Positions 1 to 45,335 of a stretch of 64,000 nt of DNA are shown here, piece by piece. The stretch comes from a virus. The DNA is taken from the UHGV virus genome UHGV-0125821, one strand, 5' to 3'. The first letter of the stretch is position 1; the number at the start of each line of letters is the position of its first letter. A program made the position numbers and the translations under genes. The notes below the pieces were generated by a model. It was not told where the DNA came from. It searched no databases and saw only the letters and a program-made list of their open reading frames with translations.

Positions 1-85
1 GCAAAGACTTTAAACCTCGTTACGGCTGGCGTGGCAAACGCGACAACCGAGACAGAGCGGTGACGGGCGGAGAGAGTGCCGCATC

Positions 86-162
86 AAGAAAGAAGCCGAC
101 TTGTGATCCCTTTCAGCGGGCATTTGAAAGTGAATCTAGCTCAGGCAGTCGGCTTCTTTCTT
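86..162. repeat. perfect 15-bp inverted repeat around a 47-nt loop
   Basis: AAGAAAGAAGCCGAC at 86-100 and GTCGGCTTCTTTCTT at 148-162, read directly. Confidence 0.6.
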
Positions 163-182
163 GTGTGAGATGTAGCGTATTT

Positions 183-207
183 GCCCATCTTCGGGTGGGC
201 TTTTTTA
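183..207 (+). terminator. intrinsic terminator
   Basis: GC hairpin GCCCA..TGGGC followed by TTTTTT; lies inside track ORF 60..245. Confidence 0.55.
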
Positions 208-379
208 GGGTTTTCGTCATGGTTAGCGACTTTGCGGCGGTTTAGAAACCGACCATTAAAGTAAATGCAAACGATGATCTGATGATGGTAGCGGCCTAAG
301 AAGCCTGACGCCACGGGGTATGAGTCGTCCCCCGTCAAAAAATCGACCGCAGAGTGTCCCCGTCTGTGTATTAGGGAAC

Positions 380-477
380 GGGGAGGCATAACAGGCAAGG
401 GCGCTGGTGTGATTAACCAGATGAATGAGAAGGGTCAGGTCTTTCTGGTCAGCGCCCTTACCTGTTACGTCCCTCCC
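380..477. repeat. 98-nt imperfect palindrome (about 28 paired positions, ~39-nt loop)
   Basis: GGGGAGGCATAACAGGCAAGGGCGCTGG pairs with CAGCGCCCTTACCTGTTACGTCCCTCCC with 3-4 mismatches. Confidence 0.45.
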
Positions 478-666
478 GCGTAATAGCCATTGCTTAATGG
501 CATCCTGGGGGAATTTCTTGTAACGGGTATATCCCGTCATGCTGAAGGCGCTAATCACGCTGGAAGCCAGGGTTATGCATCCCCTGTTACTGAATTGCAG
601 CCAGGGCGCGGTGCGCCGAAAAGCATACGGAGGTGGAAGCCCTCGCCGGAGACGTACCCGGCAAGT

Positions 667-742
667 GATGGTGTAGCTCAGCGGTTAGAGCGGTTGACTG
701 TTAATCAACGGGTCGATGGTTCAAATCCATCCACCATCGCCA
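667..742 (+). tRNA. tRNA-Asn (anticodon GTT)
   Basis: hand-folded cloverleaf: acceptor GATGGTG/CACCATC, anticodon loop CTGTTAA, T-loop TTCAAAT, encoded CCA. Confidence 0.85.
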
Positions 743-744
743 AT

Positions 745-820
745 GCCGGTTTAGCTCAGTTGGTAGAGCGCCTGCCTTGTAAGCAGGATGTCAGCGGTTC
801 GAGTCCGTTAACCGGCACCA
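745..820 (+). tRNA. tRNA-Thr (anticodon TGT)
   Basis: acceptor GCCGGTT/AACCGGC, D-loop AGTTGGTA, anticodon loop CTTGTAA, T-loop TTCGAGT, encoded CCA; 2 nt after tRNA-Asn. Confidence 0.85.
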
Positions 821-828
821 ACACAACA

Positions 829-902
829 GGTAAGGGTATTTTGCGACGTCGGAGATCGCCGTGCTTGGCAGAGGGTTCGAATCCCTACGAAGTACCCTTA
901 CC
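829..902 (+). ncRNA. tRNA-like element that does not fold as a canonical tRNA
   Basis: 10-bp terminal stem GGTAAGGGTA/TACCCTTACC enclosing GGTTCGAATCC T-arm-like motif; no cloverleaf register fits. Confidence 0.3.
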
Positions 903-1241
903 GTTGTGATGAAGTGCAGCTCTTTGAAGCAACCAGAAGATAAGCATCTGGCTTCACAACATAAACCGCAGGAACGACCAATAAACGGTAGTCCGTATGG
1001 AGAACACCCCGTTGAGGAAGAGGCCTGGCCGGAACCGTAACCGGCACTACAACGTTAAGAACACTGGCGTAACGGGGTCATATCCCAATCTATGAATAAA
1101 TGTTGCGTTGCAGCGTGACAACCAGTGTTCTCAACATTGTGGTGAATGCACAGGCTGATGTGCCGCAACTACAGTAGTGCGCGCTTTGCGGGGCTTGCTA
1201 CAACCCTGTGTCGGAGTTCAGCACCGACCATCACAATCACT

Positions 1242-1328
1242 GGAGAGTAGGGAGCATGGTGCTCAAACGGTCTTGAAAACCGTCCCATTGCGCAAGCGAT
1301 GATGGTTCGATTCCATTACTCTCCGCCA
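1242..1328 (+). tRNA. class-II tRNA-like, Ser(TGA)-like anticodon arm, atypical D-arm
   Basis: acceptor GGAGAGT/ACTCTCC plus G plus CCA; anticodon arm ACGGT-CTTGAAA-ACCGT; variable hairpin with GCAA loop; D-loop only 5 nt. Confidence 0.4.
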
Positions 1329-1591
1329 GTGCAACGTTAAGAGTATTTGGCTAATTAAGCGAATGCCGGAAGCAGAACCGGATCACCAAATGCGTACAGG
1401 CGTCATCGCCGCCCAGCCAGCCAAGTGCTCTTACCATTGCGGTGAATGCGGTTAAGCGCACGCGGAACAGTTAAAACAATCCTCCTTAGTGGTTAAGTCA
1501 AACATCCCGGCGTTAATTGTTAACTGGTTAACGTCACCTGGAGGCACCAGGCACCGCAGCTTTTTTATTCGTTAAATAATGGAGTGAGAGG

Positions 1592-1828
1592 ATGCAGAAC
1601 AATCCGAACAAATGTCGAACGCTATGGGTGCGGTTATATATTTATGTCGCCCTCTGTTTGATTGTGTCACTGGTTCTGTATGTTTGGCTTTTGCCAAATA
1701 TGATCTCATCTGACAGCACAATACTTGTATTGTTGGGAGTCCTTCTCGCGCTCATTTACCCGGCTTTTGCAGTAGTCTTTTTTCGTGAAAAAACCAGGAA
1801 ATTGATTAATGAAAAAAACGTTGATTAG
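1592..1828 (+). CDS. small membrane protein with two predicted TM helices
   Basis: hydrophobic 78-aa ORF, SD-like GGAGTGAGAGG before ATG, overlaps start of SPFH gene. Confidence 0.5.
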   Translation: MQNNPNKCRTLWVRLYIYVALCLIVSLVLYVWLLPNMISSDSTILVLLGVLLALIYPAFAVVFFREKTRKLINEKNVD

Positions 1829-2615
1829 TGCAGCGATTATTTTTGGTTCTTTATGTCTGACCGGATGCGACCGGGTAGAACCAGGCAATGTAGGGATCAA
1901 AGTAAATAAGCTGGGGGATGATAAAGGTGTCGGCGAAGTAGTTGGCGTTGGTCGCTACTGGACAGGCTGGAACACAGAAGTTTATATCTTCCCGACCTTT
2001 AAGCAAATGAAGACCTATGATGATCCGTTCAGCTTCCAAATGAGCGACGGGACAACAATTGGTTACCACATTGGTGTAGCTTACAAGGTTGATCCGGCAA
2101 AAGTCACAACTGTATTTCAGACCTACCGCAAAGGCGTGGATGACATTACCGACACTGACCTGCGCCAGAAGATCGCCGATGCACTCAACCGACTGGCCAG
2201 CAAAATGACCACCGATAAGTTTATCGACGGTGGTAAGTCTGAACTGCTGGATTCAGCACTTAAAGATATTCAGGAAGAGATGACCCCCATCGGCATTCAG
2301 GTCATGAGCCTCTCTTATGTCGGTAAACCGGAATATCCGCCAACCGTTATCGACAGCATTAATGCAAAAGTCACGGCGAACCAGAAAACTCTGCAACGCG
2401 AAGCAGAAGCCAACATGCTGCGCGCAGAAGCTGCCGGACAGGCCGATGCCATTCGCACAAAAGCCCAGGCTGAAGCTGATGCCATTCGTTTACGCGGTGA
2501 GGCTCTGCGCCAGAACCCCGGCGTTATGGAGTTGGAAGCGATCAACAAATGGAACGGAACGCTACCGCAGTATATGACCAGTAATACCGCTGTTCCGTTT
2601 GTTCCGGTGAAATAA
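1809..2615 (+). CDS. SPFH/band-7 (prohibitin-like) lipoprotein
   Basis: lipobox LTGC after N-terminal signal; SPFH-type core and Ala/Glu-rich coiled-coil tail. Confidence 0.8.
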   Translation: MKKTLISAAIIFGSLCLTGCDRVEPGNVGIKVNKLGDDKGVGEVVGVGRYWTGWNTEVYIFPTFKQMKTYDDPFSFQMSDGTTIGYHIGVAYKVDPAKVTTVFQTYRKGVDDITDTDLRQKIADALNRLASKMTTDKFIDGGKSELLDSALKDIQEEMTPIGIQVMSLSYVGKPEYPPTVIDSINAKVTANQKTLQREAEANMLRAEAAGQADAIRTKAQAEADAIRLRGEALRQNPGVMELEAINKWNGTLPQYMTSNTAVPFVPVK

Positions 2616-2628
2616 CCAAATAGATAAC

Positions 2629-2760
2629 ATGATGGAATTTTGGACGTTTGCCGACAAGAACCCTTGGTGGACATTTTTATTTCTGCTGGTGGTTGCATAT
2701 GGGGTCGAGCAAGCAGCAAAAGCCTTACGCGGTCCTGGCAAAAAGCGTAAGCGGAATTAA
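2629..2760 (+). CDS. 43-aa membrane peptide with basic C-terminus
   Basis: MMEFWTFADKNPWWTFLFLLVVAYGV...KKRKRN; below track size cut-off, no clear SD. Confidence 0.3.
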   Translation: MMEFWTFADKNPWWTFLFLLVVAYGVEQAAKALRGPGKKRKRN

Positions 2761-2769
2761 CAGTAATCT

Positions 2770-2845
2770 GGCCCTTTAGCTCAGTGGTTAGAGCAGGCGA
2801 CTCATAATCGCACGGTCACCGGTTCAAATCCGGTAGGGGCCACCA
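2770..2845 (+). tRNA. tRNA with CAT anticodon, ileX-like (Ile2 lysidine type) or Met
   Basis: acceptor GGCCCTT/AGGGGCC, anticodon loop CTCATAA, T-loop TTCAAAT, CCA; resembles enterobacterial ileX from memory. Confidence 0.8.
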
Positions 2846-3300
2846 TATTTGGTTGTAACACGGCGTCTGGCACATGCGTCGTTAGCGGTCTGGTGACGTT
2901 AAAAGGGGTATCTTTGACTCTTGCTTAGGCAAACGGACCAGGTAGCCGGAATGTGCAAGCCCCGGTAACAGTGGCGGACCGAGGACTCACCATCCTGGCG
3001 ATTCGGTGTGACAGCCGGAAGAGCACGGCGCACAACAGGAAAAGGCGTTTAATTAGCGTGAGCGCCGTTTCCGTTGTGGTAATTGCGGCTATGCGCTCGT
3101 GACGAAGCCATTTTCATTCACTACGTTCTGATAAGTGACGTCGCCAGGAGTGGCTAACCTGGCAGGTGGAGGCACCACCGCCACAACTCCTTTCAATTCA
3201 TCATATAGCCGCTCAGGCTGTACCCCTTAATTAATACGAAGTTACGACATCACTACCGGTACTTCCGGGGGATAGTCGCGCGTGTAAAAAAGGAGACGTT

Positions 3301-25548: not shown

Positions 25549-25777
25549 GTTGAATTGTAAATTTCTCCGATGTACATTCACTACCGATTGGCACACCGGT
25601 CAACTTTTTGAGACAAACTGTTTAGTTTTTCGTATTATTGCCGCCGCCATACCTATGGCGGTGCAATATAGGTGGCTGAAAAGCCCCCGTTGACTCACGG
25701 TGTTCCAGCCTTTATTGCGCCGCCACCAGACCGTGGAACAGTCGATGGCGGCTCCGAAAGCAAGGAGTCACTACACT

Positions 25778-26031: not shown

Positions 26032-26135
26032 AATACTGACTGTTGCGCCCTGGCATTATCGTGGGGTATATTTCTACGGCACCTTAGAAAAACGGGTGCC
26101 GGGATTGGAACCCCGGATAATGCAAAAGGCGACAC

Positions 26136-26160
26136 AGACGCCGAAAGCGTCTTTTTTTTT
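26136..26160 (+). terminator. intrinsic terminator
   Basis: GACGC cgaaa GCGTC followed by T9. Confidence 0.6.
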
Positions 26161-26345
26161 GTGTCATGCCATCGCACAGCCATACGTAGCGTTTAGCTCA
26201 GAGATCAATGGTAGTGCTGGCTGGGCTGCCGAAAGGCAGGCCGGTTCCCTTTTGCGCCGGTAGTTCCAACCCAGTCAGTGCTACCGCCATTGAGATTGGA
26301 ACCTCACGCGGTAGCTCCTTAAATTAGCAAAAGGAGGCTGCCAAT

Positions 26346-31697: not shown

Positions 31698-31710
31698 TAA
31701 TTACAAAGGA

Positions 31711-31737
31711 AAGCCCACTTGCTAAGTGGGCTTTTTG
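31711..31737 (+). terminator. intrinsic terminator-like hairpin
   Basis: AAGCCCACT tgcta AGTGGGCTT followed by TTTT. Confidence 0.5.
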
Positions 31738-31753
31738 TATGTGTTTTACTATA

Positions 31754-44723: not shown

Positions 44724-44889
44724 TTACTCCCCTTGTTTAGTGCCAGAAGACACGCCAGTGCTGTTAAACAAGTATCCGACATACGCTGAACAGTTATTCA
44801 GCACGATCGACGAATGCAACCAACGAAACGCACTGAATAACCAAAGAAACAGGGAGATTTGGGAAGGGAAGGGGGATCAAGGCTCCTGA
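44557..44889 (+). CDS. o-spanin (Rz1-like lipoprotein) overlapping the i-spanin gene
   Basis: SD GGGAGGA; lipobox LSGC; Pro-rich; starts inside Rz-like ORF in +1 frame. Confidence 0.6.
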   Translation: MKSLALKMRYAVLGLTMCVCLMTLSGCSGNGQKPSTSVPVKITVEATSRPQANLIDYSPCLVPEDTPVLLNKYPTYAEQLFSTIDECNQRNALNNQRNREIWEGKGDQGS

Positions 44890-45335
44890 AGCCAGATGTC
44901 CTGGCTGTCAGCTTCTTCGAAACCGTGACAGACGTTAAAGTCACTCAAACGATACTGACGCTGACGGCCCCTATTTCGCTCATGCCAATGCATATATCCA
45001 CCAGCAAATGCCAGCGGACAATCGCTATAGTCTATGTAACCAATACCATTCCCCAAACGTGCTTCGCGCGCACCAGCTTTCCAGGACAGTAGAAAAGAGT
45101 CACGATCCGCCAGCATAACAACAAAATCGTCCGGATCTCCGATACAGTGAAGAATACCAGCCTTACATAACTGCTTGAGCGCTTTTGACTGGCTCAGGAT
45201 GTCTTCTCCGTAATACTGAAAACAATCATCAACAACAGCGGGATAGCCTGTCGGGGGATTCAGGCTGGCTGGTATAGCTGACGCGATCGCCAGCATTAAG
45301 CGATATTGTGTTTTTGATGGGTTAACGTGACTCAT
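44877..45335 (-). CDS. hypothetical protein
   Basis: 152-aa ORF. Confidence 0.55.
   Translation of the reverse strand: MSHVNPSKTQYRLMLAIASAIPASLNPPTGYPAVVDDCFQYYGEDILSQSKALKQLCKAGILHCIGDPDDFVVMLADRDSFLLSWKAGAREARLGNGIGYIDYSDCPLAFAGGYMHWHERNRGRQRQYRLSDFNVCHGFEEADSQDIWLQEP

Follow-up and report, generated by a model that had tools for sequence, protein, structure and literature searches.

What does a long imperfect palindrome do in front of the tRNA genes of a P1-like phage? The question is raised by positions 380–476 of the DNA analysed here (the window, 64,000 nt of UHGV virus genome UHGV-0125821, numbered from its first letter), where an earlier note had described a 98-nt palindrome and proposed a structured leader or a processing site of the tRNA transcript, an sRNA or a protein-binding site. 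Positions 1–3000 match phage D6 at 97% and P1, P7, RCS47 and SJ46 at 90–95%; the window is a phage-plasmid of the P1/D6 type. The corresponding stretch of the P1 record follows the C1-controlled P1ban and P2ban promoters and a "dicF-like region", precedes trnA (Asn) and carries no annotation. This map position assigns the palindrome to the untranslated ban-operon leader, which, by homology to P1, is probably transcribed in the window as well. A literature search retrieved a P1 transcriptome preprint, in which the region is not mentioned. The palindrome indeed lies upstream of the tRNAs, 190 nt before tRNA-Asn, and the landmarks of the leader are as follows.

183–206, plus strand: intrinsic terminator of the DicF-like upstream sRNA region (terminator scan; P1 homology begins at the same point)
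667–742, plus strand: tRNA-Asn
745–820, plus strand: tRNA-Thr
1242–1328, plus strand: tRNA-Ser

The spacer of ~490 nt is highly conserved, its segments 195–434 and 535–674 being less variable than the tRNA genes, and its most variable part is the right arm of the hairpin together with the following 60 nt. Two IncY plasmids (loci L005 and L006, 1–1261) carry a diverged leader (78% identity) that lacks the 5′ part, and ~40 nt before the leader homology begins lies the end of a TnpB (IS200/605-type) gene. Further downstream in the window, positions 1592–2700 hold a small membrane-protein ORF and an SPFH-domain lipoprotein gene in place of P1 tciA–tciC, and these genes are common to RCS47 and to Stx and P88 prophages. 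The expected P1 immI RNAs are also present (25651–25730, 26079–26157 and 26204–26291), namely a C4 antisense RNA (76.7 bits), an isrK-like element (62.5 bits) and a second C4-like match that is sub-threshold at 40.2 bits.

Folding of the region revealed two overlapping structures.

380–476, plus strand: hairpin A, the reported palindrome (inverted-repeat search, folding, covariance model)
357–384, plus strand: invariant small hairpin TCCCCGT/ACGGGGA, 357–363/378–384 (full-leader and alignment folds)

The inverted-repeat search returned 27-nt arms (380–406 and 450–476) that are 81% complementary and 43 nt apart, and adding the wobble pairs 407/449 and 408/448 gives the ~28-nt arms and ~39-nt loop described before. 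Paired by hand, the arms form 22 Watson-Crick and 2 G.U pairs and leave three true mismatches (A.C, A.C and C.A). As plus-strand RNA, 370–487 folds at −53.4 kcal/mol compared with −35.6 ± 3.5 kcal/mol for 200 dinucleotide shuffles, none of which folded as well (z −5.1). The lower stem CATAAC/GTTACG is topped by an upper stem AAGGGCGCTG/CAGCGCCCTT, a conserved mismatch is present at 396/460 (C.A here, U.U in P1), and the apical domain (407–449) has its own helix (416–421/444–449) and a GAGAAGGG loop. The loop is kept even in the most divergent P1-like variant; its role is unexplained, and its complement is not enriched in the window. The bottom 5–7 pairs of hairpin A (380–386/470–476), nearly all G.U in P1-type relatives, compete with the upstream hairpin at 357–384, which wins in both the full-leader fold and the alignment fold. 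Thus, we regard 384–472 as the conserved core and stable unit.

No T-run follows the palindrome, as had been pointed out (477–490 reads CGCGTAATAGCCAT). An intrinsic terminator, that is, a short G+C-rich stem followed by a U-run, was rejected for this reason and because the terminator scan of positions 1–1700 reports only 183–206. A coding function was likewise rejected: neither the 20-codon ORF in the loop (421–483) nor the 100-aa minus-strand ORF (256–558) is conserved in P1 or matches Pfam, and indels between lineages break the frames of the ORFs over hairpin A. Rfam searches of 380–476 at gathering and E-value thresholds gave only meaningless microRNA-precursor matches, and the STnc100 model (RF02076) did not match this interval.

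Conservation analysis of hairpin A covered 125 loci, which collapse into 29 distinct versions; a scan of genome contigs contributed no more than two E. coli contigs and one chance match. Pairing is retained in 90.8% of the cells of these 29 variants, compared with 44–53% when the partner is slid. Pair 389/467 alternates between U-A and C-G, another pair is U-A in E. fergusonii, and six pairs alternate between G-C and G-U. Conservation and covariation in relatives had been named among the checks, and both are found, with compensatory changes across the orthologs as well as across the wider family described below. The window's own allele folds slightly better as minus-strand RNA (370–487, −58.7 kcal/mol, z −9.1). 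Across the variants, however, the plus-strand energy is nearly constant (−44 to −62 kcal/mol) while that of the minus strand collapses, by 10–20 kcal/mol in most relatives and down to about −29 to −34 kcal/mol in the P1-type and E. fergusonii variants, indicating selection on the strand that carries the tRNAs and ban.

Hairpin A is not alone. Long inverted repeats elsewhere in the window share its base, and together they define a family with the frame CAYAAC-A-GGnAAGRGC...GCYCTTnCC-GTTRYG around a variable apical insert of about 18–70 nt. A pattern search over all fetched loci gave ~10 types of the form 5′-CAYAAC-A-GGTAAGRGC...GCYCTTWCC-GTTGTG-3′ with inserts of 18–60 nt. We built a covariance model, R1, from 16 seed sequences, and its scan of the 64 kb detected six strong copies (46–65 bits), all on the plus strand and all in the ban leader between 80 and 3081. 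Hairpin A (384–472), itself a seed sequence, scores 64.1 bits (E 3e-16); the other five are listed here.

80–168, plus strand: hairpin E, diverged, with perfect 17-nt arms (46.1 bits)
819–911, plus strand: hairpin B, beginning 2 nt after the CCA of tRNA-Thr (65.3 bits)
1045–1144, plus strand: hairpin C (53.3 bits)
1327–1444, plus strand: hairpin D, beginning 3 nt after the CCA of tRNA-Ser (48.4 bits)
3028–3081, plus strand: hairpin F, a short 48-nt form upstream of the ban (dnaB-like) gene (54.3 bits)

The sole other match in the window, a weak two-strand hit at 31699–31746 (17–20 bits), is probably an unrelated A+T-rich palindrome. Members that were not used as seeds include P1 2146–2238 (65.6 bits) and copies in phages Akira (59 bits), DS8 (71.3 bits) and HK620 (44.2 bits). 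Among the 16 paralogs, 93.1% of cells are paired, 12 of the 19 pairs show compensatory double changes, and not one of 500 shuffles was as good. In the enlarged set of 62 distinct copies from 53 loci, pairing reaches 95.0% of cells, and double changes occur in 11 of 19 pairs (134 cells). The plus strand is the more stable one in 56 of these 62 copies, by a mean of 5.7 kcal/mol, with 69 G.U as against 36 A.C. In P1 itself (locus L001), the annotated minus-strand genes plp and upl (2118–2687) overlap tRNA-Thr and three plus-strand family hairpins (2146–2238, 2372–2471 and 2648–2732), and the two annotations may or may not represent real genes.

The apical inserts differ widely between copies, and those of hairpin B (829–902, with GGTTCGAATCC), locus L146 (1012–1106) and locus L007 (1818–1910) carry canonical-looking T-arms (GGGTTCGAGTCCC and GAGTTCGACTCTC being further examples), none of which is called as a tRNA by ARAGORN or the Rfam tRNA model. 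Adjacent to hairpin D lies a further candidate RNA.

1438–1558, plus strand: STnc100-like element (39.5 bits, Rfam threshold 47)

Similar sub-threshold elements (34–39.5 bits, the window element included) are found in locus L133 (2144–2267) and in the Qin prophage between dicF and dicB (locus L137, 2933–3142). Their closing stem uses GTTGTGGTG, which is at the same time the 3′ end of a family hairpin (hairpin D in the window); the hairpin base and the base of the STnc100-like element are therefore mutually exclusive pairings.

Outside P1-like elements, the family is carried by lambda, Qin, Deseoctovirus, Akiravirus, HK620 and Ackermannviridae phages. The lambda copy (44784–44865, 67.7 bits) starts 8 nt past the U-run of tR′ in the late-operon leader. 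At ≥90% identity it recurs in 58 records of phages from E. coli, Klebsiella, Salmonella and Shigella; among 5426 complete E. coli genomes, 450 contain it, in every case without annotation. RNase III sites were reportedly mapped to the lambda late leader in a 1988 study, and we presume that they perhaps lie within this hairpin. The insert of hairpin D is 98.5% identical to lambda 44866–44930, just downstream of the lambda copy. The shared ~65-nt RNA insert, AATTAAGCGAATGCCGGAAGCAGAACCGGATCACCAAATGCGTACAGGCGTCATCGCCGCCCAGC, occurs in hairpin D (1345–1420), in the lambda late leader (L134:1067–1131) and in an rV5-like phage (L135:~705–770), each time within a different closing stem, and matches no Rfam family. 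In rV5-like phages it follows tRNA-Ser, in an array where family hairpins alternate with tRNAs. In the cryptic prophage Qin, dicF is preceded by a weaker copy (25.8 bits) and followed by the STnc100-like element, an order that mirrors the window. Maturation of DicF involves RNase III and RNase E.

With its structure, strand, conservation, covariation, family and positions established, hairpin A is in our tentative reading an RNA hairpin at a module boundary, with a role in processing or stabilizing RNA that probably involves RNase III. It would form part of the long plus-strand non-coding leader of the ban operon, in which each family member, a conserved basal frame with a free apical insert, would mark the 3′ edge of an RNA module: a tmRNA-like tag element in the case of hairpin A, and tRNA-Thr, tRNA-Ser or an sRNA-like element elsewhere. 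The hairpins would thereby punctuate a polycistronic non-coding transcript. Their irregular duplex of ~20–27 bp may be cut by a double-strand-specific endonuclease, most likely the RNase III of the host; alternatively or additionally, the stem may block 3′ exonucleases, so that the neighbouring RNAs would be released with a protective stem. As a side effect, the repeated frames might serve as junctions at which recombination shuffles modules from phage to phage. We base this punctuation role on the length of the duplex, on its repetition between units and on the direct abutment to tRNA 3′ ends. Hairpin A offers the roughly two turns (~20 bp or more) of mostly Watson-Crick duplex, with tolerated internal loops, that characterize RNase III sites, and it lies between two units, the tag module and the tRNAs, that are probably co-transcribed. 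RNase III has no need of a frame that is conserved in sequence (CAYAAC, the bulged A and AAGRGC), and this conservation may reflect gene conversion or a sequence-specific partner. An RNase III consensus, WNAGWG/CWCUNW, would fit the UAAGAG/CUCUUW of the frame, to which we give no weight. Counted against this reading is that expression of the palindrome depends on read-through past the terminator at 183–206; no sigma-70-like promoter was found in positions 1–1700.

What, then, became of the initial proposal? Its structured-leader or processing-site part is borne out in so far as the hairpin is a conserved RNA-level structure on the tRNA strand, in a leader that is transcribed according to P1 homology; processing itself is our best mechanistic guess. 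An independent sRNA or a protein-binding site, the other candidates, may also apply. The hairpin has no specific tie to the tRNA cluster. The constant upstream partner is the tmRNA-like tag module, and family copies occur at tRNA-free places (L133, DS8 and lambda). In a distant P1-like Salmonella plasmid, the ban leader has no tRNAs, yet it holds three hairpins with the family base. The six copies and the wider family, the lack of a specific tie to tRNAs and the location of the frames at recombination breakpoints had all escaped the earlier note.

The constant companionship of hairpin A and the tag module across very different phages opens another reading, in which the hairpin is an arm of the tag RNA and not a boundary. 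Two parts of the module (207–334) are listed here.

207–266, plus strand: conserved 5′ part of the tmRNA-like module, GTTTTCGT..AGCGACTTTGCGG..TTTAGAAACnGACCA..AAAGTAAAT
267–299, plus strand: tag frame GCA AAC GAT GAT CTG ATG ATG GTA GCG GCC TAA, encoding ANDDLMMVAA* (unannotated)

Located ~85 nt upstream of hairpin A, the frame has an A-rich lead-in (UAAAU, then GCAAACGA) and the hallmarks of a tmRNA tag, namely an alanine resume codon and a hydrophobic-Ala-Ala end followed by a stop codon; the E. coli tmRNA tag is ANDENYALAA. A UUUGCG in 207–266 pairs with the resume-codon region, the stop codon lies inside a covarying hairpin (286–313), and a second covarying hairpin (314–334) comes next. 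The Rfam model tmRNA_permuted (RF04321) aligns exactly over the resume region and the tag (267–299). Window 207–385 has homologs in 303 phage records from very different families, including P1-like, P22-like (HK620), N4-like, Ackermannviridae, Drexlerviridae and other enterobacterial phages. In eight phage lineages with nine distinct sequences, the tag frame follows AN[DE]x......[AV]A* and always has 10 codons plus TAA (others are ANDDVVLMAA, ANDNEFKVAA, ANDDLMLMAA, ANDDVILMAA, ANDNTFLAVA and ANEEMYLAVA). It always starts with GCA AAC GA..., whereas the other frames differ in length between these lineages.

All seven lineages in which a family hairpin was scored have it after the tag frame. 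The gap from the stop codon is 78–86 nt in the P1-likes (window and P1), DS8, Akira, HK620 and phiEa2809, and ~220 nt in PhiSH19, whose copy carries a T-arm-like insert; the upper stems of these hairpins are quite different in sequence between lineages. The arrangement is most self-contained in Shigella phage DS8 (locus L139, 2036–2830), where a stand-alone plus-strand non-coding unit lies inside, and opposite to, a minus-strand structural operon. It opens with a promoter-like TTGACA-17-TAGATT, continues with the tag module, a pair of family hairpins and a T-arm-like hairpin that GTTGTGGTG/CACCACAAC closes, and ends in a terminator; its fold reaches a z of −5.7. In HK620, the tag module is located between pR′/qut and the late terminator. 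In phage ECBP1 (locus L143), it is flanked by an upstream tRNA-Ala-like gene (510–581) and, 12 nt downstream, by a tRNA-like gene (873–951) that lacks CCA, is annotated as a pseudo-tRNA and in its 3′ part weakly matches the 3′ end of the tmRNA model (15.5 bits).

Hairpin A might accordingly be an integral arm of a phage tmRNA-like RNA that is needed for tagging or for interference with trans-translation, comparable to helix 5 or to the pseudoknot-replacing hairpins of some tmRNAs. The RNA would then be a widespread, unrecognised phage RNA with a genuine tmRNA-type tag frame (AN[D/E]x....AA*), which, together with a non-canonical or separately encoded tRNA-like partner, re-tags stalled proteins of host or phage, or which is a decoy that disables host trans-translation, the hairpins being both scaffold and processing system of an "RNA cassette array". 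The constancy of the frame, the exact alignment over the tag, the structured stop codon and the regular spacing speak for this reading, as does the DS8 unit. On the other side, family hairpins also exist without a tag module, as shown by the lambda, Qin and L133 copies and by those that follow tRNAs. ARAGORN detected no tRNA-like domain (G3.U70 acceptor stem, T-arm and CCA) in the window or at seven related loci, and a search for a T-loop motif followed by an acceptor strand and CCA returned T-arm-like hairpins without a chargeable end. The tRNA-like part of RF04321 is skipped in the alignment, the Rfam scores (24.1 bits in the window, 25–33.5 bits in relatives) stay below the tmRNA gathering threshold of 47, and similarity to E. 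coli ssrA is limited to words at chance level. In the surveys consulted, phage tmRNAs are listed only for mycobacteriophages and Bacillus phage G (PMC4131195; PMC11915505). We therefore consider an arm of a tag RNA unlikely, albeit the most serious competitor of the boundary hairpin.

The second of the two main rivals places the function in DNA; like the first, it does not exclude a boundary hairpin that acts in RNA processing. Comparison of the window with five relatives (P1, RCS47, and E. fergusonii and Salmonella relatives; loci L001, L003, L004 and L133 for 891–3032) positioned the homology breakpoints at hairpin edges: 891, 913/918, 1047, 1137, 1331, 1421–1426 and 3032. The tRNA-Ser module looks inserted between hairpins C and D, which share direct repeats (1041–1060/1323–1342 and 1124–1149/1424–1449). 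The hairpins could thus be module junctions, either simple repeats or attC-like folded single-strand sites, at which tRNA, sRNA or small-gene cassettes are exchanged between phages. In line with this, the frames that enclose one apical insert differ between lambda, the window and an rV5-like phage, and the AAC...GTT base, the bulged base and the variable tip recall attC. Homologous exchange requires no hairpin, yet compensatory changes maintain the pairing, and the base CAYAAC/GTTRYG is not the RYYYAAC/GTTRRRY of attC. We know of no dedicated recombinase for these hairpins. All copies are co-oriented with transcription within transcribed non-coding RNA arrays, and the breakpoints are compatible with an RNA role. 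As the primary function, a DNA junction thus appears rather improbable.

Somewhat less probable still is a protein-binding site or shield, in which the hairpin would load an antiterminator or a ProQ/FinO-type binder, or keep the 3-kb leader Rho-resistant before ban. The frame is conserved in sequence, including the bulge and the mismatch, and the leader is highly structured (z −3.5 for 207–668), as is the DS8 unit. Nothing specific points to any factor, however, and the late transcript of lambda, being Q-modified already, would need no shield against Rho. Finally, although the window's own allele folds better on the minus strand, an antisense RNA from that strand, a cruciform or operator in the DNA, and a palindrome due to chance are all very improbable. 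A minus-strand RNA was rejected on the comparative energies and on the plus-strand preference of the family, and the shuffles and the extensive covariation argue against chance.

The hairpin family and the tag-like module are unmarked in the 535-feature P1 record, in the RefSeq annotation of E. coli prophages and in Rfam 15. Processing hairpins in phage transcripts are of an already known kind. What appears to be new is a family with a conserved frame and variable insert in P1, lambda, Qin and several lytic phages that is tied to mosaic junctions and to a tag module; individual copies, especially that of lambda, may have been described in the older literature. P1 and lambda are among the best-annotated genomes, yet the family is unannotated in them, as in all other records examined. 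Should the hairpins prove to be processing signals, they would account for the release of tRNAs and small RNAs from long untranslated leaders, which for late-operon tRNAs has been posed as an open question in the phage L genome paper (PMC8022706). Hairpin frames at mosaic junctions are also a concrete candidate for the long-postulated "boundary sequences" of phage modular evolution. The tag frame region has homologs in ~300 phage genomes, and if it is functional, many enterobacterial phages would manipulate ribosome rescue or the tagging of proteins.

How do the boundary hairpins compare with known systems? Like REP/BIME and ERIC elements, they are transcribed imperfect palindromes that could affect RNA stability. 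In contrast to these, the copies reside in one 3.1-kb leader in one orientation, are phage-borne and share no sequence similarity with them; the scattered distribution in both orientations expected of dispersed repeats or MITEs was not seen, as the R1 copies of the window are confined to the plus strand of 80–3081. Integron attC sites resemble them in the imperfect hairpin with an ...AAC/GTT... base, extrahelical bases and variable tip, in the strand-specific fold and in the position at cassette boundaries. The base of the family, (G/A)CAYAAC ... GTTRYG(G/T), has a purine in the third position with a matching pyrimidine and thus departs from RYYYAAC/GTTRRRY. Moreover, its setting is a transcribed RNA array whose cassettes are RNA genes, and to our knowledge no integrase is associated with the family hairpins. 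The T4 tRNA cluster contains species 1 and 2 (rnaC/rnaD), structured non-tRNA RNAs that are co-transcribed among the phage tRNA genes, some of them tRNA-like. These tRNA-like features recall the T-arm-like inserts of hairpin B and the PhiSH19 copy, whereas the T4 RNAs have no sequence relationship to the family and are discrete and stable with known ends.

With tmRNA (ssrA), the upstream module shares a frame of 10 codons that starts at GCA and finishes with Ala-Ala or Val-Ala and TAA, the A-rich lead-in, the stop codon in a hairpin and the structured arms thereafter. It differs from tmRNA in having no detected tRNA-like domain and only sub-threshold Rfam scores, and the hairpin family also exists without it. 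The closest parallel is provided by the RNase III hairpins of phage transcripts (the T7 early sites R1.1–R5 and the lambda N-leader, sib and late-leader sites), which have irregular stems of ~20–27 bp with mismatches or bulges and no U-run, are repeated between the units of one transcript and are similar to each other in sequence. Compared with these, the present family is known from sequence, with cleavage as the predicted step, and combines its conserved frame with a free, sometimes tRNA-like insert. Furthermore, whereas the classical sites separate mRNAs, the family hairpins separate non-coding RNAs, i.e., tRNAs, sRNA-like elements and the tag module.
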